Source: Opitutales bacterium (GTDB lineage: Bacteria; Verrucomicrobiota; Verrucomicrobiia; Opitutales; UBA2987). Taken from it: 64,000 bases of DNA. A program made the translations under genes and the position numbers. Under the pieces are notes generated by a model that saw only the letters and a program-made list of their open reading frames with translations, was not told the origin of the DNA and did not search any database. Below are positions 30,158 to 49,500 of this stretch, in pieces; the stretch's first letter is position 1, and every line of letters starts with the position of its first letter. The stretch lies in NCBI GenBank assembly GCA_965226885.1, contig CBDDEL010000014.1:32001-96000 (forward strand). Reading direction: 5' to 3'.

Positions 30158-30796
30158 TTACGCATGGCTTTCTCCTTCGACATGAGCAACCTTGGTATCA
30201 TCTCTAAAGAAAAATATGAAGAAACCGATCAGTGCTGCTGTCATGCCGATTGGCCAGAGCCAGATGGTATGCCAATCGTGTCCACCCTCTGTTGCGTATT
30301 TTTCGACTACCATGCCTGCGAGATTGCTGCCCAGAAACCAACCGAGACCAAATGTTATGAGGAAGTTGAGGCCCTGCGCCTGGGACCGGATGCTCTTGTC
30401 GGCCTTCTTGTCGGTGTAGAGTTGCCCGGTGACAAAGAAAAAATCATAACACGGGCCATGCAGGAGGAGGCCAGCAAATACCAGGATCCATAACTCCGTT
30501 CCCCAGTCTCCAAATGAAAAACAGATGAAGCGGGCGATCCATGCAAACATACCTATAAGGAGCATTATCTTCACTCCGAAACGGACAAAGAAAAACGGCA
30601 TGGCAACAAGGAAGATGACTTCAGCCATCTGGCCCGAGGATTGCCAGGCCTGGGCTGCATTCATAGTCGGGAACTCATTCAGATACAGGTTGGCAAATGA
30701 CCAGTAAAACATCGCGGGGAAAAAGATCAGGAATGAGGATATGGCAAATACCGCAAAGTTCGGATCTTTAAAAAGGCGCAATGCCTTCAGGCCTAG
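30158..30796 (-). pseudogene. nucleoside:H+ symporter (NupG/XapB-like MFS), C-terminal half only
   Basis: GQMAEVIF, LLHGPCYDFFFVTGQLY, RSQAQG; 5' half replaced by an IS1380 end. Confidence 0.88.
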
Positions 30797-31142: not shown

Positions 31143-32709
31143 CCCGGATATTTCGTAAAAAAAGTATCGTTGATATGCTTAACTGCTGATATACAGCAGG
31201 ATAGATCAATAATTAAAGCAATATCAGCGATGACAAAAGGTAAACAATTAAAGCTACAGTTGACAAGGGTAAAAGGCCGCCGTGTGCGGGTTGATTTCAA
31301 GGGCGGAGAGGTTACTTCGGATGCCGGACTGCTTTTGATCCGGGAAGTGGATCGGCAGTTGGGCTTGACCGAACGAGCGGCCCGACAGTTAGTGGACAAA
31401 CGGCAGAAGGGCAAAGTACGCCATGAGGTATTGGGGATGCTGCGGCAGCGCGTTTACGGGCTGGTGGCGGGCTATGAGGATTTGAACGACTTTGATACCC
31501 TGCGCCACGATCCATTGTTGCAAACGGTAACGGGGCGCATTGAAACGTTGGCCAGCGCGCCGACTTTGTGTCGTTTTGAAAACGGGCAGGATCGGCGGGC
31601 GGCCTTTGCGGTAAACGAGCTGTTGGTCGAACAGTTCATGGGCTCCTTTGCCGAGGAACCCGAAGAGATCATCCTGGACTTTGACGCCACCGACAATCCG
31701 GTGCACGGGCTCCAGGAGGGACGTTTTTTCCACGGTTATTATGATCATTACTGTTTTCTGCCGCTATATGTTTTTTGCGGTGATCAGCTGCTGGTGGCCT
31801 ACCTGCGGCCGAGCAAGATCGATGCCAGCAAGCATGCCGGGGCCATCCTCAAATTGCTGGTTAAACGGATGCGCCAAAGCTGGCCCCGTACGCGGATTAT
31901 TTGGCGCGCCGACAGTGGATTTTGTCGAGACCGGATACTCTCTTGGTGCGACCGCAACGAAGTTAGTTACATCGTGGGGATGGCTCGCAATGCACGCTTG
32001 CAGCAAGACGCCCAGCAGTTGCAAAAGCAGGCCAAAGAATGGTTCGAACTAAGGGGTAAAAAACAACGGTTATTCCAGGACTTCGTCTATGCTGCCGATT
32101 CGTGGCGATGGCTGCGGTTGGTCATCCATAAAGCCGCACACACCGCACAGGGGTCCAACCCGCGCTTCGTGGTGACGAACCTACCGGGCGATCCCCAGGA
32201 GCTTTACGACAAGGTATACTGTGGCCGCGGTGAAATGGAGAACCGAATCAAGGAACAGATGCAATTGTTCAGCGAGCGCACCAGCGCCCATCAATGGTGG
32301 GCCAATCAGTGGCGATTGCTCTTGTCGGCGCTGGCCTACACCTTGATGGAAGCCATGCGCCGGTTAGCCTTAAAAGGGACGAAGTGGGCGCGGGCCCAAT
32401 GCCACACCCTGCGGCTCAAATTAATCAAGATCGGAGCGGTCATCGTGCGCAACACCCGAACGATTCACTTTCACCTAAGTGAGAGTTATCCTTGGGCCAG
32501 TCTTTTCAACCATGCGGCCCGCCGATTGGTGCCAACCTAAAGGGTGCATTGGTGCTGCCCCCGGCACTACCGAACCAATGGGGGAAAGGGGGCAGTGTCT
32601 CTACACCCTGAAAAACACCTAAAAATCAAGACGATCTGCTCAAAATACAAAGAAATCCATCTCCAATAGCAATAACGAGCCAAACTTTACCCTTCATGAA
32701 ATATCCGGG
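31143..32709 (+). mobile_element. IS1380-family element, full length (transposase 31230-32540)
   Basis: IRs CCCGGATATTTC/GAAATATCCGGG; SDAGLLL, GYEDLND, LDFDATD, RADSGF, RGEMENRIKE. Confidence 0.96.
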
Positions 32710-36745: not shown

Positions 36746-37597
36746 TTAATCGGCCTTTACTAGCAACCGATCAAACTGCAATACCTTCTTTCCTGTGCGT
36801 TCAGGAACGATTTTCCAGAAGGATTCAGCGTCATCTAAGTGGACCATGTTAAGATAGTGCTTTTTGATTATCCTCTCAGAATTACCTGCTTGAAGGGCGG
36901 TATCTCCGACGCTGCGGAACTTGCCCACATGATTTGATATATAGGTATGCCGAAGCCCGTCATGCGGCAGATTGAATCCCCTGCGGATATTGGGGTAGTC
37001 CAGCGTGGGTGTTTTTGGGATAAGGCGGGTTGTTTCAGGTGGATACCTGACGAGCCATTCCCGGAGGTTCGGCTGTATCTTGATCTGCCGAAGGTCCTTC
37101 ACCTTGGAAACCTCCGGCGGGATGCGAATTACCTCGTTTTTCATGGCCACAAACGAAGCCAGGCCCAATTTTCCCAGCTTCGCCATCTCCCCATGTAAAA
37201 AATCCGGGCGTATCCCCGCAAACAAAGCCAGGGCAAAAAACAAAGACCATTCGCCCCTTGGACTGTTTCCATTACGGCGGTAGTTTTCCACATGGGCCAT
37301 AAAATCCTGGGCGGTTTGTACTGTGAGAATTTCCGGTATCCCCATAGAAATCGTAAAGCGATCAATTTCGGTGACCGGGTTTTCCAAGAGCCATGAGCGC
37401 GGCCTGGCCATGCACCATGCAAAAAAACTGCTCAAGTCTCCCCTGTATAGGTTCCAGGTTTTCTTTGAACCGTGGATGCCCTCAAGCCATCCTTTAACAT
37501 CATCAGTGGTGATTTCGTGGAGTAGCTTCCCTTGGACATGTTCTGCAAAGCGGGTGACAGTATATTTTAGATTAATGTGCTGCCTTGGCCCGATATG
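36746..37597 (-). pseudogene. phage-type tyrosine recombinase/integrase, N-terminus removed at IS21
   Basis: LFAGIRP (R), SKVK (K), HDGLRHT (HxxR region), AGNS...KHY (Y); does not continue beyond the IS21. Confidence 0.85.
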
Positions 37598-37671
37598 TGT
37601 AAACGCCGGGGAAAAACCGGTACGGTAAAGAGGGCGCTTTAAAACCGGTACGCTTATCCTAGAAAGGAGGA

Positions 37672-39177
37672 GTGTATCGAGATATGAAGCAATGGACAAG
37701 AGTGCGGCACAAAGTGCTGCGGGACAAGCAGAGCAAGCGCTCTGTAATGCGAGAAGAGGGACTGCACTGGGAGACCCTGGGAAAGATGCTGGCCTATTCC
37801 CAGCCGCCGGGATACCGGCGCAAGAAGAGGCGAGAGCGCAAGATCGATCCGTATGTGGGCTGGATCGAGGAGGTGCTCAAAGCGGACCGGAACGTGCCCA
37901 AGAAGCAGCGCCATACGGCCAAACGGATCTACCAGCGTTTGGGTCGGAAGAAGGGCTACCAAGGGGGCTACACGGCGGTCAAGGAGGTGGTGGCCGAGCT
38001 GCGAGCGAGGCGGTGGGAAGTGTTCGTGCCGCTGGAGCACCGCCCCGGGGAGGGACAGGTGGACTTCGGTCATGCCCTGGTGAAGGAGGCGGGGCAATTG
38101 CGTAGGCGGCCATTTTTTGCCATGAGCCTGCCCTACAGCGATGCCTTTTTCGTGCAGGTGTTCGAACGGGAGTGCACGGAGAGCTTCTGGGAGGGGCACC
38201 TGCGAGCTTTTGAGTTTTTCGGGGCGGTGCCCCGGCGCATCAGCTATGACAACTCGAAGGTGGCGGTGGGTAAGATTATCGGTTCGCGTGAACGCAAGCT
38301 GACCGACGGGTTTCTGCAGCTACAGAGCCATTACCTGTTCGAGGAACACTTCTGTCTGCCCGCCCGGCCCAACGAGAAGGGCGTGGTCGAGGGGATCGTG
38401 CGTTATGCCCGGGCCAACTTCCTGGTACCGGTACCGCAGGTTCGGGACCTGGAGGAACTCAACGCAAAGCTGTTGGAGGCATGTGAGCGGGACATGGAGC
38501 GTAAATTACGCGGGAAAAGGGCGGTGAAAAAGGAACTGCTGGCCGAGGAGCGCGCCGTCATGCTGGCGTTGCCGCCCATACCCTTTGAAGCGAGCCGCAA
38601 ACGCTCGACCTGCGTCAGCAGCCTCTCGCTGGTGCGCTTCGAGTGCAACGACTATTCGGTGCCGGTGCGCTGCGCCCACCATCCGGTGGTGGTGGAAGGG
38701 TCCTGTCGGCAGGTGGTGATCTTCTGTGGGGGCCAAGAGGTGGCCCGGCACCGCCGCATTTGGGATAAAGAGCAAGTCTCTTTCGAGCCGGTGCACTACC
38801 TGGCTTTGCTGGAGAAAAAACCGGGCGCTTTGGACTTCGCCCGCCCACTCTCGGGCTGGCAGTTGCCGCAGTGCCTGCAGGTCCTCAGACGCCGGCTCGA
38901 AAGCCAATGCGGGGGCGAAGGCACCCGGGAGTATATCCGGGTGCTGCGGCTGTTGGAGAAACACCCCATGGCGGCCTTGCAGCAGGCCGTCGTCTCGGCC
39001 CTGCGGGTGGGGGGACTGACTCGTGAGGCCATCGCCCAGTATCTCTATCCTCAGGAAGACTACGGGAGCAGAACCTTCCGGCTGGACGGCCATCCACACC
39101 TGCGTCACGTCCGTGTGGCCGCCCCTGACCTCGGTGCCTACAGCGAACTGCTCAAGATTCCAGGAGGGGCTTTATGA
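37672..39177 (+). CDS. istA: IS21 transposase IstA
   Basis: GEGQVDFG, YDNSK, NEKGVVE. Confidence 0.95.
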   Translation: MYRDMKQWTRVRHKVLRDKQSKRSVMREEGLHWETLGKMLAYSQPPGYRRKKRRERKIDPYVGWIEEVLKADRNVPKKQRHTAKRIYQRLGRKKGYQGGYTAVKEVVAELRARRWEVFVPLEHRPGEGQVDFGHALVKEAGQLRRRPFFAMSLPYSDAFFVQVFERECTESFWEGHLRAFEFFGAVPRRISYDNSKVAVGKIIGSRERKLTDGFLQLQSHYLFEEHFCLPARPNEKGVVEGIVRYARANFLVPVPQVRDLEELNAKLLEACERDMERKLRGKRAVKKELLAEERAVMLALPPIPFEASRKRSTCVSSLSLVRFECNDYSVPVRCAHHPVVVEGSCRQVVIFCGGQEVARHRRIWDKEQVSFEPVHYLALLEKKPGALDFARPLSGWQLPQCLQVLRRRLESQCGGEGTREYIRVLRLLEKHPMAALQQAVVSALRVGGLTREAIAQYLYPQEDYGSRTFRLDGHPHLRHVRVAAPDLGAYSELLKIPGGAL

Positions 39178-39941
39178 AGGAAGAAAAAAACCAGCTGCTG
39201 TTACACCATCACCTCAAGAAACTGAAGTTGCCCACCATCCTGCGCGAATGGCCGGCGGTGGCCGCGGCTTGTTCCCGGGACCGGCTCGATTACGCCGCCT
39301 TTGTGTTGCATCTGGTCGAACGGGAGCTCATTGAACGCGAACAGCGGGCCGCCCAGCGGCGGATCAAAAACGCCCGTTTCCCCGTGCTCAAGACCCTCGA
39401 GAGCTTCGCCTTTGAAGCGCAGCCCTCGATCAACGAAGCGCTCATCCGAGAGCTCATGCGCGGGGAGTATGTCGACCAGCGCGAAAACGTGCTGCTCCTC
39501 GGTAACGCCGGTACCGGTAAAACGCACCTGGCCACCGCCCTGGGCTTTGCCGCCTGTGCCCAGGGCCGGCGGATCCGTTTCTTCGGGGTCACCGCCCTGG
39601 TTACCCATATGCTCGAGCAACGCGACAACCACGACCTGCAGCGCTTCATGAAGCAACTCGAAAGGCTCGACCTACTCATCCTCGACGAACTCGGTTACGT
39701 CCCTTTTTCCAAGACCGGTTCCGAACTGCTCTTCGACGTGGTCAGCCGCGCTTACGAGCGCACCAGTCTCATCGTCACCACCAACCTGCCCTTTGAGAAC
39801 TGGATCGAAGTGCTCGGTTCCGAACGGCTCACCGGAGCTCTGCTGGACCGACTCACCCATCGGGTGCATATCCTCGAAGCCAACGGGCAAAGCTACCGCT
39901 TGCGCGATGCTCGACGCCGTCGCCGTGGCACAAAACAATAA
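39174..39941 (+). CDS. istB: IS21 helper ATPase IstB
   Basis: GNAGTGKT, LILDELGY, TTNLPF, ALLDRLTH. Confidence 0.96.
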   Translation: MKEEKNQLLLHHHLKKLKLPTILREWPAVAAACSRDRLDYAAFVLHLVERELIEREQRAAQRRIKNARFPVLKTLESFAFEAQPSINEALIRELMRGEYVDQRENVLLLGNAGTGKTHLATALGFAACAQGRRIRFFGVTALVTHMLEQRDNHDLQRFMKQLERLDLLILDELGYVPFSKTGSELLFDVVSRAYERTSLIVTTNLPFENWIEVLGSERLTGALLDRLTHRVHILEANGQSYRLRDARRRRRGTKQ

Positions 39942-40115
39942 ACGCCTTGGGCCCGGCTCGTCGGCCTCCGGCCTCCTCACCGACCCCAAGCCAATCCCCA
40001 AAACCAACTCCCAAACCCTAAACCTTGACGTACCTGCAATTACTAACCTAAACCTTATTCCAAGCGTACCGGTTTTACCCCGACCCCCGTACCGGTTTCA
40101 TCCCGGCGTTTACAG

Positions 40116-40319
40116 CCGGGATATGAGGTAATTATCATTCGGGTAGGGAAAGGCCATTATTTGGGCGACCAAAAGGATACCCTAATGGAGCGGTACCCTA
40201 CCAACAATGAATGGGGCAAGTATGGCTGGACCCATTCCAATGATGAAAGTGCCAAAATTGCGGCCAACAATGCTTATCGGGAAGAATTGCTCAAACAGGA
40301 GGGCAAGTGTGCTGCGTAA
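40116..40319 (+). pseudogene. 5'-truncated phage-like hypothetical protein (not in ORF track)
   Basis: Open frame PGYEVIIIRVGKGHYLGDQKDTLMERYPTNNEWGKYGWTHSNDESAK...KCAA* beginning at the IS21 end. Confidence 0.55.
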
Positions 40320-40493
40320 AGGTATCAGGAAGGGATTGCTGTACGTCTCAAAACGGGGGGTTGGGGGCAAATAGGTATCAGAGTGCCACTTTATCAGAAG
40401 TTCGATGATTTAAGCATGAATTTCACATTCATACCTGTGGACATGGATTCAGAATTAGAACCAGTACGTTTTCTTCAAATTGCATACAATATT

Positions 40494-40559
40494 GGGGGCG
40501 AAGGATTTCGACGGCGCAGCAGTGACCGGATGGCGGTTCGATTCCGCCCGCCTCCAGCA
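40494..40559 (+). ncRNA. minimal tmRNA-like RNA: tRNA-like domain only, no tag reading frame
   Basis: Acceptor stem GGGGGCG/CGCCTCC with G3:U70 and discriminator A; AAGGATTTCGAC loop; T-arm GGCGG-TTCGATT-CCGCC; 15-nt hairpin in place of the mRNA-like domain. Confidence 0.8.
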
Positions 40560-40575
40560 AATCAAAGGAAAAAAC

Positions 40576-40800
40576 ATGAGCAAATGGAGAAAAGTCAAGG
40601 AACGCCTGGAAGACCTTCTCGACGCACCTGATGCCACGATAACGAAGACTGAAGCTGCCAAAAGGCTGGGAATGTCACATCGCGCCCTCCATTTTTATCT
40701 GTGGAACGGGAAATCTGTGCCATCCTATAACCTTGGATGCCAATTTCAGAGGCTACAAAGGCATTTAGAAAAGAAATCCCAATATTCGCCTATAAAATAG
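40576..40800 (+). CDS. small helix-turn-helix DNA-binding protein (phage regulator/excisionase-like)
   Basis: 74 aa; AAAGGA RBS; TKTEAAKRLGMSHRALHFYL HTH pattern. Confidence 0.7.
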   Translation: MSKWRKVKERLEDLLDAPDATITKTEAAKRLGMSHRALHFYLWNGKSVPSYNLGCQFQRLQRHLEKKSQYSPIK

Positions 40801-40945
40801 GGATAACCCATTATCACAATATCCCTTTTGATGTGCCGGGGAGAGAGGGACATAATCTATTCTAAACCACATGTTAAATCTAATTTATTATGTAAAATTT
40901 TACAAATAACAATTCAAACAATTTAAGGGAGATAAAACTATATGA

Positions 40946-41101
40946 AACGGAATCAACCAGCTCAGCCAGCTCCTGTTCCATGGCCCGAGTGTAGTTGAGT
41001 ATCCATTTGGTTTTCTCCTCCTCACTCAGGTCATCTGTGTAAACACCGATGCGCTCGTTGAGGGCTTTTTGCATCCCGAAAATCTCGTCAAACTTGTCCA
41101 T
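40946..41101 (-). pseudogene. dimeric (all-alpha) dUTPase, 3'-truncated
   Basis: MDKFDEIFGMQKALNERIG...EQELAELVDSV, then AT-rich sequence where the family PWKWW motif would follow. Confidence 0.75.
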
Positions 41102-41183: not shown

Positions 41184-42446
41184 CTAGACCCTGATGAGGC
41201 CCTTTTTCAACATGCCCATAATGGTGGCCGGGGCCTGACGGTTTTTTAATAGATCGCGCATCGTTTTCATATAGGGGTCGATATGGGCGAAGAACCGCTT
41301 GTAGGCGGGGCAGAGGTAGTTGAGTCCGTATTCGCCGTCGGGGGTTTTCATGAAGCGGTGTTTGGGGCATTCTCCGTGGCATGCGAAGCGGTAATCGCAA
41401 CGGCGGCAATAGGCGGGCAGGGTGTCCGCTTTGTCGCGCCCGAATTTTTTCATGGCGGGAGAATCGACCATCTCGGCGATGGTTTTATCGCGGATATTGC
41501 CCTGCAGGTATTGCGGGTAAACATAATGGTCGCAGGCATAAAGGTCGCCATTGTGCTCAATTGCTAGGGCCCGGCCGCAATGCTCGCTGAAAATGCAGAG
41601 GCCCCCACCCATCCCCATCCAGTTGCCCAGCGCCACATCGAATACCTGCACATAAGTATTCCCGACATCGTTGCGCACCCAATGGTCGAAGATCGTGACC
41701 AAAAATTCCCCATAATCTTTGGGCAGCACACTCCAGCGCGTGACCGGACTTAGTTTCTCATTTTCATCCTCGGGTTCTGGGGGAGTGGCCAGGGATAGTT
41801 TCAGCAAAGAAGCGGCGTCATCGGGTTTTCTTTCCACAATGGGAATGAATTGCAGGTAGCGCGAACCGATCTTGCGCAAAAAATTATAAACTTCGAGGGG
41901 TTTTCGGGAATTGCGGCGGGTGACGCAGGTGAGTGTGTTGAAGGGCACCCCATGCTTGCGGCATAGCCCGATGCCGCGCATGACGCGGTCGAAAGTGGAA
42001 TTTTGTTTGCGGTCCACCCTATAGATATCATGCAGCTCCCTCGTCCCATCGATGCTGATGCCGACCAAAAAGTCATTGTCCCGCAGGAAACGGCACCACT
42101 CATCGTCCAGCAAAGTAGCGTTGGTCTGGAAGGCATTGTCGATTTTGCGCCCTTCACCATATTTTTTTTGCAATTCGACTACCTTGCGGAAGAAATCCAC
42201 CCCCATAAGGGTTGGCTCCCCTCCCTGCCAGGCGAATGAAACCTCGTTACCGGGCTGGGCCTCGATGTATTGGCGGATATAGTTATCCAGCACATCTGCC
42301 GGCATACGCAAATTTTCCCCTCTCGGGAAAAGCTTCTCCTTTTCCAGGTAAAAGCAATATTTGCAGTCAATATTGCAGCGAGGACCAATCGGTTTGGTCA
42401 TCACATGAAAAGGCGCCGAAGCGGTTTTTGTTAAAACATCCGTCAT
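41184..42446 (-). CDS. anaerobic sulfatase maturase (radical SAM/SPASM)
   Basis: CNIDCKYC, WQGGEPTL, GDLYACDHYV, CRRC...CHGECPKHR. Confidence 0.93.
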   Translation of the reverse strand: MTDVLTKTASAPFHVMTKPIGPRCNIDCKYCFYLEKEKLFPRGENLRMPADVLDNYIRQYIEAQPGNEVSFAWQGGEPTLMGVDFFRKVVELQKKYGEGRKIDNAFQTNATLLDDEWCRFLRDNDFLVGISIDGTRELHDIYRVDRKQNSTFDRVMRGIGLCRKHGVPFNTLTCVTRRNSRKPLEVYNFLRKIGSRYLQFIPIVERKPDDAASLLKLSLATPPEPEDENEKLSPVTRWSVLPKDYGEFLVTIFDHWVRNDVGNTYVQVFDVALGNWMGMGGGLCIFSEHCGRALAIEHNGDLYACDHYVYPQYLQGNIRDKTIAEMVDSPAMKKFGRDKADTLPAYCRRCDYRFACHGECPKHRFMKTPDGEYGLNYLCPAYKRFFAHIDPYMKTMRDLLKNRQAPATIMGMLKKGLIRV

Positions 42447-43247: not shown

Positions 43248-43547
43248 TCAACGAGCGTCCGGATTAACGCAATTCGGCCCCAGGAGGGGTTGCATGGCTT
43301 CGTTGATCATCGGATAATTCTCTGCTTCCTGATTTTTCTCGATCCACTCCTCGTATTCATCCGGAACCTCGGAATCCTGGAAGATGGCGTCCACCGGGCA
43401 TTCGGGCACACAGAGGTCGCAATCGATGCAGGTATCCGGATTGATGTAGAGACGGTCGGGCGCTTCATGAAACGCCTCAACAGGACAAACTGCAGCGCAA
43501 TCGGTGTATTTGCAATCGACGCATAGTCCCGTAACAACGTAGGTCAT
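43248..43547 (-). CDS. 7Fe/8Fe ferredoxin (FdxA-like)
   Basis: MTYVVTGLCVDCKYTDCAAVCPV...CIDCDLCVPECP; true start 43547. Confidence 0.93.
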   Translation of the reverse strand: MTYVVTGLCVDCKYTDCAAVCPVEAFHEAPDRLYINPDTCIDCDLCVPECPVDAIFQDSEVPDEYEEWIEKNQEAENYPMINEAMQPLLGPNCVNPDAR

Positions 43548-43550
43548 AGG

Positions 43551-46204
43551 TGATGTGCACTGGAAAAAGTGGACACGAGATTCTCCTAAATGGAGAATCG
43601 AAGCATGGGAAGAAGACGCAGTATAGAGTTCAAAAATGAGGCAGTTCAACTGATGATACTCGATGGTCTGAGCGCCACCGAGGTATCGACCAAACTTGGG
43701 GTCAACACCAACCAATTGTATAGGTGGAAGAGGCTCTATCTGGACGATCAGCAGGGCGAAGCCACCTCAAAGCGACAGAGCAGTCCGAAGGAGATGGCGG
43801 CCGAGATAGATCGTCTTCGCAAAGAGCTGCGCCGCTCGGAGCGGATCAACCAGATACTAAAAAAAACGGTGGGCTACTTTGCCAAGGACGAACAATGAAG
43901 TACCAGTTTGTCAAAGACAACGAGGGGCGCTTCAAGATCGAGGAAATATGCTCGGCGATGGGGATTTGTCGCAGTGGCTATTACTGCTGGAGGCACCGAG
44001 CGCCCTCGGCCCGGCGGATCGAGGACGAGGGAATCAAGGGGGCGATCCTGAAGGTACACAAAGAGGCCAAGGGCCGCTATGGGCATCGGCCAATGCACCG
44101 CCATCTGAAGGATGATGAGGGCATCGATTGCGGCCGTGACCGGGCTCTGCGTCTGATGCGTGATGACGTGTACTGGATTTGTTGGACACGGGATTCTCTT
44201 ATATTCATTGTTTATTGATTAGTGTGTCAGGCGGCTTGTTTTGGTAAAGGGTTTTGTTTTCTCGTTGCCCCCCATGGGGGGCAAATATTTTCCTCGAATT
44301 GGACTGGGCTTTGGTAACTCAGAGAGGAATGTTTGCGATATCGGTTGTAGAAGATTTCCACGTATTCGAAGACAGTTGATCGCAGTTCGCGCTCGTCGGC
44401 AAAGTGGCGGCCTCGAATCGTGCTGGTCTTGAAGCGGCCGTAGAACGATTCCATGGCCGCGTTGTCGTAGCAGTTGCCTTGGGCGCTCATGCTCGGCTTC
44501 ATGCCTAGTTCAGAGACCAGCCTCTGATAGTCGTCGCTGGCGTAGGGGCTGCCCCGATCGCTGTGATGAATAATCCCGGTGCGCAGTGTGCCGCGGGTCA
44601 TGGCCGCGGCTTTGAGGGCCTTGCCAACCAGCTTCGCGTCGTTGTGGTTGGAAACGCTCCAGCCCAGCAGGCGTCGGCTGAACAGGTCCATCACCGTGGC
44701 CAAGTACATCCAACCGGCCAGGGTCCGTAGGTAGGTCGTGTCCGCCACCCAGACCTCGTCGATATGGGTCGGCTGGCCATGCTTTTTAAGCACATTGGGG
44801 CTGTAACCATAGGGATGGTTACTGTTGGTTTTTAATGGCTTAAAGCGTTTACTCTGGGTGCTTTTGATTCCCATTTCACGCATCAGACGCAGAGCCCGGT
44901 CACGGCCGCAATCGATGCCCTCATCATCCTTCAGATGGCGGTGCATTGGCCGATGCCCATAGCGGCCCTTGGCCTCTTTGTGTACCTTCAGGATCGCCCC
45001 CTTGATTCCCTCGTCCTCGATCCGCCGGGCCGAGGGCGCTCGGGGCCTCCAGCAGTAATAGCCACTGCGACAAATCCCCATCGCCGAGCATATTTCCTCG
45101 ATCTTGAAGCGCCCCTCGTTGTCTTTGACAAACTGGTACTTCATTGTTCGTCCTTGGCAAAGTAGCCCACCGTTTTTTTTTAGTATCTGGTTGATCCGCT
45201 CCGAGCGGCGCAGCTCTTTGCGAAGACGATCTATCTCGGCCGCCATCTCCTTCGGACTGCTCTGTCGCTTTGAGGTGGCTTCGCCCTGCTGATCGTCCAG
45301 ATAGAGCCTCTTCCACCTATACAATTGGTTGGTGTTGACCCCAAGTTTGGTCGATACCTCGGTGGCGCTCAGACCATCGAGTATCATCAGTTGAACTGCC
45401 TCATTTTTGAACTCTATACTGCGTCTTCTTCCCATGCTTCGATTCTCCATTTAGGAGAATCTCGTGTCCACTTTTTCCAGTGCACATCATGAAATGGGAA
45501 TCAAAAGCACCCAGAGTAAACGCTTTAAGCCATTAAAAACCAACAGTAACCATCCCTATGGTTACAGCCCCAATGTGCTTAAAAAGCATGGCCAGCCGAC
45601 CCATATCGACGAGGTCTGGGTGGCGGACACGACCTACCTACGGACCCTGGCCGGTTGGATGTACTTGGCCACGGTGATGGACCTGTTCAGCCGACGCCTG
45701 CTGGGCTGGAGCGTTTCCAACCACAACGACGCGAAGCTGGTTGGCAAGGCCCTCAAAGCCGCGGCCATGACCCGCGGCACACTGCGCACCGGGATTATTC
45801 ATCACAGCGATCGGGGCAGCCCCTACGCCAGCGACGACTATCAGAGGCTGGTCTCTGAACTAGGCATGAAGCCGAGCATGAGCGCCCAAGGCAACTGCTA
45901 CGACAACGCGGCCATGGAATCGTTCTACGGCCGCTTCAAGACCAGCACGATTCGAGGCCGCCACTTTGCCGACGAGCGCGAACTGCGATCAACTGTCTTC
46001 GAATACGTGGAAATCTTCTACAACCGATATCGCAAACATTCCTCTCTGAGTTACCAAAGCCCAGTCCAATTCGAGGAAAATATTTGCCCCCCATGGGGGG
46101 CAACGAGAAAACAAAACCCTTTACCAAAACAAGCCGCCTGACACACTAATCAATAAACAATGAATATAAGAGAATCCCGTGTCCAACAAATCCAGTACAC
46201 GTCA
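43551..46204 (+). mobile_element. IS3-family type B, outer copy interrupted by a second copy of itself
   Basis: IRL at 43551, IRR ends 46204; OrfB split at 44163/45490; flanks AGG/AAT are not duplicated. Confidence 0.95.
44164..45489 (-). mobile_element. IS3-family type B, inner inverted copy with fused OrfAB (44227-45450)
   Basis: Complete IRs; 3-bp duplication TGA (44161-44163 / 45490-45492). Confidence 0.96.
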
Positions 46205-46573: not shown

Positions 46574-49500
46574 GAGGCTGTCCCAAAAGGGTGATTTTTG
46601 CGAGGGCTTTTGATAGGCGCTCATTTTAGAGGTATTTGCATTTGGGAGAGTATCAACTTTGCTCTTCTATGACGTTAGGATACTGGTTTTGGGGTCCGGT
46701 TTCCTGGTTTTCTTTGTATGAGCCGACAGTAAGGCTGTGAAAAAGTATTGTCCTTGCTTTTCCGCTCTCTAGCCCGGATATTTCGTAAAAAAAGTATCGT
46801 TGATATGCTTAACTGCTGATATACAGCAGGATAGATCAATAATTAAAGCAATATCAGCGATGACAAAAGGTAAACAATTAAAGCTACAGTTGACAAGGGT
46901 AAAAGGCCGCCGTGTGCGGGTTGATTTCAAGGGCGGAGAGGTTACTTCGGATGCCGGACTGCTTTTGATCCGGGAAGTGGATCGGCAGTTGGGCTTGACC
47001 GAACGAGCGGCCCGACAGTTAGTGGACAAACGGCAGAAGGGCAAAGTACGCCATGAGGTATTGGGGATGCTGCGGCAGCGCGTTTACGGGCTGGTGGCGG
47101 GCTATGAGGATTTGAACGACTTTGATACCCTGCGCCACGATCCATTGTTGCAAACGGTAACGGGGCGCATTGAAACGTTGGCCAGCGCGCCGACTTTGTG
47201 TCGTTTTGAAAACGGGCAGGATCGGCGGGCGGCCTTTGCGGTAAACGAGCTGTTGGTCGAACAGTTCATGGGCTCTTTTGCCGAGGAACCCGAAGAGATC
47301 ATCCTGGACTTTGACGCCACCGACAATCCGGTGCACGGGCTCCAGGAGGGACGTTTTTTCCACGGTTATTATGATCATTACTGTTTTCTGCCGCTATATG
47401 TTTTTTGCGGTGATCAGCTGCTGGTGGCCTACCTGCGGCCGAGCAAGATCGATGCCAGCAAGCATGCCGGGGCCATCCTCAAATTGCTGGTTAAACGGAT
47501 TCGCCAAAGCTGGCCCCGTACGCGGATTATTTGGCGCGCCGACAGTGGATTTTGTCGAGACCGGATACTCTCTTGGTGCGACCGCAACGAAGTTAGTTAC
47601 ATCGTGGGGATGGCTCGCAATGCACGCTTGCAGCAAGACGCCCAGCAGTTGCAAAAGCAGGCCAAAGAATGGTTCGAACTAAGGGGTAAAAAACAACGGT
47701 TATTCCAGGACTTCGTCTATGCTGCCGATTCGTGGCGATGGCAGCGGTTGGTCATCCATAAAGCCGAACACACCGCACAGGGGTCCAACCCGCGCTTCGT
47801 GGTGACGAACCTGCCGGGCGATCCCCAGGAGCTTTACGACAAGGTATACTGTGGCCGCGGTGAAATGGAGAACCGAATCAAGGAACAGATGCAATTGTTC
47901 AGCGAGCGCACCAGCGCCCATCAATGGTGGGCCAATCAGTGGCGATTGCTCTTGTCGGCGCTGGCCTACACCTTGATGGAAGCCATGCGCCGGTTAGCCT
48001 TAAAAGGGACGAAGTGGGCGCGGGCCCAATGCCACACCCTGCGGCTCAAATTAATCAAGATCGGAGCGGTCATCGTGCGCAACACCCGAACGATTCACTT
48101 TCACCTAAGTGAGAGTTATCCTTGGGCCAGTCTTTTCAACCATGCGGCCCGCCGATTGGTGCCAACCTAAAGGGTGCATTGGTGCTGCCCCCGGCACTAC
48201 CGAACCAATGGGGGAAAGGGGGCAGTGTCTCTACACCCTGAAAAACACCTAAAAATCAAGACGATCTGCTCAAAATACAAAGAAATCCATCTCCAATAGC
48301 AATAACGAGCCACGAGCCAAACTTTACCCTTCATGAAATATCCGGGCTAGGCCGCCGCTTTGGTTTTTAGTTCGTCTTGCTGGGCCAGCATCTTGGCTAC
48401 TTTCCATAGGTTGTGCGAGAGTACCGACCAGGCTACGCTGATCGAGCGGTTGGCAAAGCCTTTGCTGCGCAACCGCCCGGCCTGCCAGCGATTCTTCAAT
48501 ACCCCGATCCGCCCTTTGGTGCTGGCCCGGCGCTTTTGCAATTGCCTGAACAGTGGTTCCTCCATCCGTTTTTTCAACTGCTTCGGATCGCGTGGACAGA
48601 GCGCGTCGTAGATTCCCTCCTGGGCTAACTGCCGGCGGGCCCGCTGGGAGGCAAATCCCCGGTCCGCGCACATGGCCGCTATGGGTTCTTCCAGGTTGAA
48701 GCGGTTCTGTCTTTGCAAACTCTCTTGCATTTGTTCATTTTCGCTTGGAGTTCGGCTGCCGTAGAGTTTCCAGTCCAGCAGGTACCCTTCAACGCTTTCT
48801 CCCAAAAACAGGGTGTTGCCGAACTCGACCTCTTGGCCCGCTTTACCTCGCACAATCACCTGCCCATCGAGTTCGTAAACACTCAAGACTTTCTCTGCGT
48901 TTTTCACCTGCCGGCCGCCAATGATCCGCTCGTGCGCCTGTTTGATGACCACCGGGATTTGCTCGCTCATGCGCTCCATCCGGGCGAGGATCTGTTGGAC
49001 CTGTTTTTCGCTGTAATCGCTTTGCTCCCAGCAGGCTTGCAATAATTCCCGGTGACTGCGGGCATGCTCCCCGATCCGTTTGAGCAGCTTTTTCATCTGC
49101 CTCAAGATACCCTTGCGCTGCCGCGCGCTGTCCTTTCGCCGCCGGCTGTGGGTCATCTGTATGCACAGCCGATTCATCTGCCGAGCCAAGGGCTCCGGTT
49201 CGATCGGCATGCGATGGCGCAAACCGGCCTTCTCGCGGATCAGCCGGATCGCTTTGAGCAACGTGCCGGCTACATCCTTGAGTAATACCCAGTCCGTCGG
49301 CCAATGAATGTTAGCCTCCAAACAGGTGCCGTCGATCAGGCAAATGGTGGGGTCAATCGGCTTGTCCAATCCCACCTGCCGGGCCAGAAGGGCATCGCCC
49401 ACCACCTCAGTCAAGGTCCGGTGCAAGGCCCTCAACTGCTCTTCGCTGAAAAACTTCGAGGCCCGCTCCAGGGTGCTTTTGGAGATGCCCCTGATGCCAT

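Follow-up and report, generated by a model that had tools for sequence, protein, structure and literature searches.

A transfer-messenger RNA gene reduced to its tRNA-like domain in an Opitutales genome, and its relatives in phage DNA

Bacteria rescue stalled ribosomes and control product quality mainly by trans-translation, a pathway under study as an antibiotic target. Besides the standard transfer-messenger RNAs (tmRNAs), forms have been described that comprise the tRNA-like domain (TLD) and carry no coding sequence (CDS) for a degradation tag. For phages, 'Mycobacterium phage DS6A (TLD only)' is an entry in the excerpts available of Hudson, Lau and Williams (2014), whose viral screening was restricted to RefSeq viruses (PMC4131195). 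Inhibition of tmRNA in E. coli has been reported for this TLD-only tmRNA, according to second-hand accounts of Mao et al. 2009 in excerpts of two papers (PMC4131195, PMC11915505). Among organelles, as far as the excerpted text of the second of these papers goes, CDS-less tmRNAs occur in jakobid and oomycete mitochondria (the mt-tmRNA of Rfam) and as two plastid genes of about 65 bp in Mallomonadaceae (PMC11915505). Here we analyzed a stretch of 64,000 nt (hereafter the window), positions 32001-96000 of contig C14 in the 5.48-Mb assembly of an Opitutales bacterium, and found on its forward strand, at 40494-40559, a tag-less mini-tmRNA gene of 63-66 nt that encodes the TLD only. It is a genuine gene of the kind reported once before, from DS6A. 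Judged by its sequence, the locus belongs to a subclass, short and with a single hairpin, of the phage TLD-only tmRNAs, a kind that is known but scarcely documented. An earlier reading of this DNA, made from the sequence alone (the sequence-only reading), had known of no named phage precedent, and on this point it is corrected by the DS6A entry already in print (PMC4131195, PMC11915505, both seen as excerpts). Our own full-text literature search returned mentions of DS6A only and no description of a wider phage family; tmRNA database supplements, which possibly hold more CDS-less phage entries, lay outside this search.

The identity of the gene is carried by its match to the Rfam tmRNA model. 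RF00023 aligned with both gene ends (49.3 bits, E = 1.8e-16; cmscan, gathering cut-off 47) and was the model reported within the tmRNA/mt-tmRNA clan, of which cmscan gives only the best match. The alignment spans model positions 1-374, with 11 nt standing in for 318 internal positions, and all upper-case consensus positions of the TLD are matched, except that GGAC is replaced by GGAU and that the CCA end differs. Both a stemless D loop of the GGAUUCGAC type and a T arm with GGUUCGAnUCC are present in this alignment to the consensus. The pseudoknots PK1-PK4, the tag frame, the resume codon and the stop are all missing, and about 11-17 nt separate the two halves of the TLD. These nucleotides form a single bulged hairpin and not a two-tier arm, which places the RNA in the short subclass; in the minimum free energy (MFE) fold the linker between this hairpin and the T arm is GAU. 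The mature RNA probably corresponds to 40494-40556 with an added CCA. Since 40557-40559 reads GCA, the CCA must be added. A hidden micro tag frame, GCAGCAGUGA, was considered and rejected, as its sequence is the 4-nt loop plus stem of the short hairpin and is not conserved in the class. ARAGORN did not call the window gene and reported no tag peptide for it. The sequence-only reading had quoted the gene letter by letter, and it is found at 40494-40559 (+) as written; its description of a TLD-only tmRNA with 5'-then-3' ends, neither permuted nor a 3' fragment at an att site, agrees with the ordered match of RF00023 to both ends, and the alanyl-tRNA synthetase (AlaRS) identity elements that it named, G3:U70 and A73, are present. 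The parts of the RNA and its immediate surroundings are collected in Table 1.

Table 1. Features of the mini-tmRNA locus in the window and sequence differences between the window copy (C14) and the second genomic copy (C10). ORF, open reading frame; R1, covariance model built in this study.
Feature	Position (strand)	Description	Differences, C14 vs C10
Mini-tmRNA gene, TLD only	40494..40559 (+)	RF00023 49.3 bits; own model R1 66.7 bits; MFE fold	1/66
Acceptor stem, 5' strand	40494..40500 (+)	GGGGGCG; pairs with 40549-40555 CGCCUCC, including G3:U70; 7 bp; pairs 5-7 covary in the family	
Stemless, unpaired D-loop analogue	40501..40511 (+)	AAGGAUUUCGA; 2 nt shorter than in host ssrA; aligned to Rfam consensus GAucuGGaUUCGAC	
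Short P2-like hairpin	40512..40528 (+)	6 bp, bulged A 40525, loop AGCA; replaces about 300 nt of pseudoknots and tag frame	
T arm	40532..40548 (+)	GGCGG-UUCGAUU-CCGCC; 5-bp stem, 7-nt loop; T-stem pairs 1-3 covary in the family	
Acceptor stem, 3' strand, and discriminator	40549..40556 (+)	Discriminator A73 at 40556; followed by GCA, not CCA	
16 nt after the RNA			0/16
Conserved 81-nt stretch 5' of the RNA	40413..40493 (+)		1/81
Spacer	40320-40412		11/93
3' remnant of 118-aa ORF	40114..40319 (+)	ORF intact in C10 behind DnaB; here cut by IS21	
IS21-family insertion sequence truncating the element	37597..40114 (+)	IstA 37672-39177, IstB 39174-39941; Mu-transpos_C_2, IstB_IS21	
Small 74-aa ORF	40576..40800 (+)	Weak helix-turn-helix signal (MerR, E 0.0095, below cut-off); paralogues on C10 and C17	14/130 (first 130 nt)

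A complete ssrA of 358 nt, tag frame included, is present in the host genome (C15:318749-319106, 137.4 bits), as is one smpB (C15:95496-95918, 181 bits). Compared with the host ssrA, the mini gene has C-G in place of U-A at acceptor pair 6:67 and GGCGG/CCGCC in place of GCGGG/CCCGC in the T stem, where two pairs differ; in each of these three pairs the change is compensated. In the T loop, the mini gene reads UUCGAUU and the host gene UUCGACU, and the D region of the mini gene is 2 nt shorter. A one-off deletion of the host ssrA is ruled out by the three compensated pairs and by the abundance of homologues elsewhere; the sequence-only reading had proposed to recognize such a deletion by ends identical to the host ssrA and a lack of homologues, and the pair differences, the D region, the T loop and the many relatives described below all show the reverse. 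A permuted two-piece tmRNA was rejected because the 5' piece precedes the 3' piece. An ssrA 3' fragment left at an att site was rejected as well: the 5' end is present, three compensated differences separate the gene from the host ssrA, and no integrase match was found among 119 neighbouring ORFs of its relatives.

A second copy of the mini-tmRNA gene was identified in the same genome (C10:392994-393059), scoring 40.9 bits with RF00023, below the cut-off of 47, and 65.4 bits with our own model R1. It differs from the window copy at one of 66 positions, C40512T, by which the first hairpin pair changes from C-G to U-G. The block 40413-40575 shows 2/163 differences between the two copies, compared with 25/223 in the flanks (Fisher p = 6.6e-5). 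This uneven conservation fits purifying selection on the RNA and its leader, and the 81-nt stretch upstream is possibly a leader or control region. The C10-type variant is also carried by contigs from other public runs, and one marine-metagenome contig has C40515T, again a change from C-G to U-G. These are the only two natural variants seen, and both keep the hairpin pairing; contigs of four runs yielded variants only and no RNA ends.

Relatives of the gene are frequent in viral DNA. IMG/VR was scanned with an exact pattern (GGGG, the D-loop TTCGA, the T loop and CTCCA, total length up to about 80 nt), which imposes G1-G4, U70 and A73 on whatever it finds. At least 120 loci were matched, and the matches listed comprise 93 unique sequences of 59-80 nt; for the 24 fixed bases, the chance expectation is by our own estimate far below one. 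The 93 unique viral sequences listed fall into two architectures. In the short class (15/93), which includes the window RNA, one closing hairpin of 4-10 bp with free sequence joins the two halves, whereas the long class (78/93) has a helix of 7-8 bp, an A-rich stretch and an inner hairpin of 3-4 bp, often CCGCAYGCGG. When the short class alone was counted (gap of at most 27 nt), the complete count in IMG/VR was 27 loci with 16 unique sequences. An extreme 55-nt member lies on an IMG/VR contig next to a major head protein gene (L210, 2001-2055); its central part is reduced to a closure of about 2 bp (GGCC), leaving essentially a bare acceptor/T minihelix with a D loop. We also observed tRNA-like genes of 68-69 nt in metagenome-assembled genomes (MAGs) of Eremiobacterota, Verrucomicrobiota, Parcubacteria and Gammaproteobacteria (L156, L167, L177, L162 and L176, all at 2001-2068, and L157 at 2001-2069), one of which, L156, has a second copy 300 nt away. 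They combine an acceptor, D-loop and T arm of the tmRNA type with a central stem of about 8 bp and a 7-nt loop with U at its second position, which resembles an anticodon loop, and possibly they represent tRNA-like RNAs without a D arm, different from the mini-tmRNAs.

The covariance model R1 was built from 18 short-class sequences, with five of the 68-69-nt genomic sequences with anticodon-like loops excluded. It gave 102 matches in the 100 sources searched (of about 150 loci), DS6A among them. Standard pairs fill 97.6% of the alignment cells, compared with 65.3% in shuffles and 44-57% with slid partners. Both-side changes occur in 13 of 18 pairs, and the covariation score is 0.758 versus 0.135, a value reached by none of 500 shuffles, in an alignment that was fitted to the model, whose sequences are related and not independent, and in which pairs 1-4 were fixed by the search. 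Phage homologues with compensatory changes, which the sequence-only reading had suggested looking for, thus exist among the IMG/VR loci.

To examine the identity set free of the imposed bases, we used a pattern whose sole fixed parts are TTCGAC, GGAC and the T loop. This unbiased scan of IMG/VR again matched at least 120 loci; among the 93 unique sequences in the matches listed, 87 have at least 6/7 acceptor pairs. Within these 87 listed sequences, G1:C72 is found in 87/87, G2:C71 in 86/87, G3:U70 in 86/87 and A73 in 87/87, and the single exception in the identity set looks like a register artefact of the script. Acceptor pairs 4-7, by comparison, vary, with four to six pair types each. It seems from the near-invariance of G1-G3, U70 and A73 beside a freely varying stem that charging matters, and an apparent need for charging would favour action on the ribosome, by blocking or by tag-less rescue, over simple sequestration of SmpB. 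Of the 87 listed members, 26 encode CCA, and at least 71 (counted over the eight commonest 3' tails) have C directly behind the discriminator, even where the full CCA is absent; the window gene has G.

The pattern is rare in bacterial genomes. The same exact pattern matched 28 loci in 185,579 species, with one genome each, scattered over many phyla and mostly on MAG contigs; 22 of these 28 loci have 7/7 acceptor pairs in our register. In the host phylum, one of 401 genomes matched, namely the host itself, with none in the 400 others and zero matches for a reversed-pattern control. R1 found no mini gene in 40 related genomes, only partial matches on the true ssrA of two of them. Because the gene is this rare in species, phylum and relative genomes compared with IMG/VR, it is accessory in bacteria and concentrated in viral DNA. 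A BLAST search of the 66 nt against 50,697 phage records was uninformative, as none of the 112 matching records covers at least 80% of the query.

The neighbourhoods of the viral relatives are those of phages. At 64 unique viral loci, 26 of 119 neighbouring ORFs have any Pfam match at E <= 1e-5 and none matches an integrase family at this threshold. The neighbours include terminase and portal (2 loci) and DnaB (3 loci, at one of which it ends 1 nt before the RNA), together with a primase, an SSB, methylases, NlpC/P60 and WhiB. For the short class, 90 ORFs at its 16 unique loci include DnaB twice, a small terminase, a head-tail adaptor, a major head protein and endolysins. In two viral lineages the RNA is again preceded by DnaB, and those helicases are 30-31% identical to the DnaB beside the C10 copy; given this low identity, a shared element linking C10 to the viral DnaB-RNA loci was rejected, and what is shared is gene order only. 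The RNA lies in or beside a tRNA gene cluster at 7 of 35 viral loci. Moreover, we examined five large phage records of 146-201 kb, of which four are at least 90% complete and two have terminal repeats. Each carries exactly one mini gene above the Rfam cut-off, at 54-63 bits, and neither a full-length tmRNA nor SmpB was found in any of the five. Across 103 family members, the 60 nt preceding the RNA showed no common -10 box. In many cases the RNA comes immediately after an ORF stop or a tRNA, with a ribosome-binding site (RBS) and an ATG behind it, a gene order that suggests processing from polycistronic transcripts.

The family appears to have been overlooked because phage annotation relies on ARAGORN. 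In the excerpts seen of two phage surveys that report tmRNAs, ARAGORN was the program used (PMC7162821, PMC9004378). Run on 35 viral loci among 37 sources, it made no correct call, and two loci were mis-called as odd tRNAs. The mini genes at L192 (1977-2067) and L202 (1988-2070) are called as tRNA-Glu or tRNA-Arg of 83-91 nt. Another ARAGORN call, a 324-nt 'tmRNA' at L072 1498-1821 (-) with the tag AWDYNPMWVQCSA, followed by a stop, ends at the 3' end of a mini gene and is probably spurious.

In the host genome, both mini-tmRNA copies are flanked by insertion sequences. The C10 copy lies in a 3.4-kb unique island between two of them, in the order 321-aa protein, DnaB-type helicase (PF03796, E 3.8e-92; phrog_19, E 6.8e-101), 118-aa ORF, mini-tmRNA and a small ORF with a weak helix-turn-helix signal. 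The 321-aa protein has a weak replisome-organiser signal (phrog_15768, E 5.9e-11; PF09681, E 0.0054, below cut-off), and the 118-aa ORF has no family match; no usable relatives of this ORF or of the C10 DnaB were found on viral contigs. In the window, IS21 cuts the replication module inside the 118-aa ORF, and about 830 bp survive (40114-40946). The downstream small ORF has an RBS a few bases upstream of its ATG, which begins 17 nt past the end of the Rfam match (40559). The window fragment would belong to a phage-like replication module shredded by insertion sequences; this is shown only indirectly, and a prophage remnant is a fair guess. The placement inside a prophage remnant, made by the sequence-only reading, is thus only partly borne out: phage-like replication genes stand beside the C10 paralogue only, no intact element exists, and the window itself holds the fragment of about 830 bp between insertion sequences and no phage structural genes, its remainder consisting of housekeeping genes and transposases.

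The insertion-sequence load of the window is very high (37597-40114, 31170-32540, 46800-48170, 43540-46000 and elsewhere). The 2.5-kb IS21 element at 37597-40114 gives at least about 90 alignments across the genome, full or partial, with identities of about 99%, and many more were obtained for an IS3-type (rve) element. The window also holds two identical genes for a 456-aa DDE_Tnp_1_4 transposase, and several of its host genes are interrupted, for example a nucleoside symporter (fragment at 30158-30781). Directly downstream of the surviving fragment lies a radical SAM/SPASM gene, 41184-42446 (-), with a 93%-identical paralogue at C13:243292-244972, another duplicated accessory segment. A third copy of the small helix-turn-helix ORF, 79% identical, is located on C17 (226952-227263) and has no mini-tmRNA; its homology to the window begins exactly at the 3' end of the RNA (40556/7), with an IS21 end and about 30 nt of unrelated sequence directly in front of it.

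As to function, we judge it somewhat more probable than an even chance that the mini-tmRNA would be a charged SmpB ligand that diverts or inhibits trans-translation. RNase P together with an enzyme that processes 3' ends would release the RNA from a longer transcript, after which CCA would be added. The RNA would be charged with alanine by AlaRS via G3:U70 and A73, bind host SmpB and EF-Tu, and compete with the host tmRNA for entry into ribosomes that have stalled on non-stop mRNAs. Because the RNA carries no tag frame, the stalled product would be left without a degradation tag while SmpB is tied up, and host trans-translation would be inhibited or short-circuited to the benefit of the element. 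From the sequence we infer expression, charging, SmpB binding and the effect on tagging.

Several points weigh against this proposal. The fold is no more stable than shuffled sequences (MFE z = -1.20, not significant; 25 of 200 shuffles fold equally well), so significance comes from homology and not from energy, and the case for more than chance rests on the Rfam E-value, the second genomic copy and the family of related sequences with covariation. The constraints that the first search pattern placed on its hits and those of the fitted covariation alignment count here too. The window gene has GGAU where GGAC is usual, and G at position 74 (window 40557). Neither a sigma-70-like promoter nor a terminator adjoining the window gene was found, nor a sigma-70-like site in 40413-40493, with scan counts at chance level. 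The similarity of the two paralogues in the conserved block could be caused by gene conversion or recent duplication. According to the excerpted secondary accounts of Mao et al. 2009, the inhibition was seen without charging (PMC4131195, PMC11915505); charging would then not be required for the known effect, and conservation of the identity set may reflect something else. Finally, as only a fragment of the element is left between insertion sequences, the copy in the window could be a dead relic.

A relic in this sense would mean that the family is functional in phages while both copies in this genome are unexpressed leftovers. It is suggested by the short unique islands between insertion sequences in which both lie, by the lack of phage structural genes nearby and of any promoter-like site found, and by the C17 copy of the downstream ORF, which has lost the RNA; the RNA and the 81 nt upstream, however, are far better kept than their flanks, and the only two variants seen both keep base pairing. 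We regard the relic as doubtful, with a weight that should still be taken seriously. Integration-site debris, in which the 5' end of ssrA was fused to a 3' fragment by an ssrA-integrating element, would explain why the C17 homology starts exactly at the 3' end of the RNA, and there is a weak integrase-like ORF at 36746-37699; the available excerpts of PMC4131195 describe ssrA as a frequent integration site at which gene fragments arise. Both ends nevertheless stand in gene order around a well-formed hairpin and differ from the host ssrA, independent relatives with covariation are numerous, many of them inside complete phage genomes, and 0/119 ORFs neighbouring the viral loci match an integrase family at E <= 1e-5. 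This origin is largely refuted and is in our view extremely improbable.

The remaining alternatives concern what such an RNA would do. In a productive tag-less rescue, the charged RNA would take over the stalled peptide and the peptidyl-RNA would drop off or be hydrolysed, so that ribosomes are freed and the product, with an added alanine, stays untagged, which would help the element when its mRNAs are cut. The alanine identity set, kept where the search did not impose it (G3:U70 in 86/87 and A73 in 87/87 of the listed sequences), speaks for this and would not be needed by a pure sponge; organelles keep CDS-less tmRNAs together with SmpB, in the excerpts of PMC11915505, and the five phage records have neither their own SmpB nor a full tmRNA. 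No release mechanism is known for a peptidyl-TLD, however, and the sole experiment cited in the excerpts reports inhibition, not rescue (PMC4131195, PMC11915505); the sequence data cannot separate tag-less rescue from the charged inhibitor, and we consider it unlikely. A pure sponge, which would sequester SmpB off the ribosome with aminoacylation irrelevant, draws on the same secondary account of Mao et al. 2009 (PMC4131195, PMC11915505, excerpts), but G1:C72, G2:C71, G3:U70 and A73 hardly ever change although the other acceptor pairs vary freely, a contrast that points to selection on an AlaRS or EF-Tu interface and makes the sponge a little less likely again. A role in defence would make the RNA a bait for nucleases that cut tRNA or tmRNA, or a ligand of SmpB-like defence proteins. 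The excerpts of PMC10542128 describe CoCoNuT type IV restriction systems with SmpB-like OB folds predicted to bind tmRNA-like RNA; in addition, the family is enriched in phages, and DS6A encodes an RtcB-like RNA ligase. These points are purely circumstantial, and no defence or anti-defence gene is consistently adjacent among the 119 and 90 neighbouring ORFs, which leaves a defence role very unlikely.

In a wider formulation, these RNAs would form a large overlooked phage family with two architectures (about 60-70 nt with a single hairpin, about 75-83 nt with two tiers), a general aminoacylation-dependent viral device that seizes or shuts down trans-translation at the ribosome, and the window copies would be live and selectively kept after decay of the element. 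We put this forward tentatively, at somewhat less than an even chance. What our data suggest as new is the breadth of the family in phage genomes, its two architectures, the kept alanine identity set and its oversight by ARAGORN. The idea has so far been based on one phage gene, that of DS6A, and one experiment; the abundance of the family in phage genomes makes this thinly supported old observation testable across many phage-host pairs. If the proposal holds, a mobile 63-nt RNA that competes for SmpB and stalled ribosomes would be a compact evolved inhibitor, and the mini-tmRNA would also serve as a tool to study rescue apart from tagging.

Among known systems, the DS6A gene, which has an entry on the tmRNA Website, is the nearest. 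We located it at JN698994 28478-28560 (83 nt, unannotated in the GenBank record), between gp33 and gp34 'DNA polymerase III'. Like the window RNA, it has a complete TLD in 5'-then-3' order, no pseudoknots and no tag frame, and both are matched by R1 (DS6A at 47.9 bits). With the C10 copy it shares a place beside replication genes, before gp34 in DS6A and behind DnaB on C10, and apparently a phage or mobile setting. It differs in its two-tier arm, composed of a helix, an A-rich stretch and an inner CCGCACGCGG hairpin, which places it in the long class, whereas the window RNA of 63-66 nt has a single bulged hairpin; with RF00023 it scores 43.2 bits, below the Rfam cut-off that the window copy exceeds, and the window copy resides in a bacterial chromosome. 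DS6A also encodes an RtcB-like RNA ligase (gp76); in bacteria, according to the excerpts of PMC10542128, RtcB most often repairs SsrA.

The other known systems are more distant. A tRNA-Ala shares with the mini gene G3:U70, A73, a 7-bp acceptor stem and a T arm, but the mini gene has no D stem, no anticodon arm and no anticodon, and ARAGORN does not call it. The standard one-piece tmRNA, represented by the host ssrA, has in common with it an acceptor stem with G3:U70 and A73, a D loop that has no stem and ends in UUCGAC, a linker of the GGAC kind, the T arm and the helix P2 that closes the domain; the mini gene differs in lacking about 300 nt, which in the standard form comprise four pseudoknots, the resume codon, the tag frame and the stop, in having no encoded CCA and in its D region, shorter by 2 nt. 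Organellar CDS-less tmRNAs resemble it, by description and not by sequence comparison, in consisting of the TLD only, in their size of about 65 nt and in their presumed SmpB partner. They have, however, been vertically inherited from the bacterial ancestor of the organelle and are the sole tmRNA of their compartment, whereas the host of the mini-tmRNA keeps a full ssrA and the mini form is an extra and apparently horizontally moving gene.

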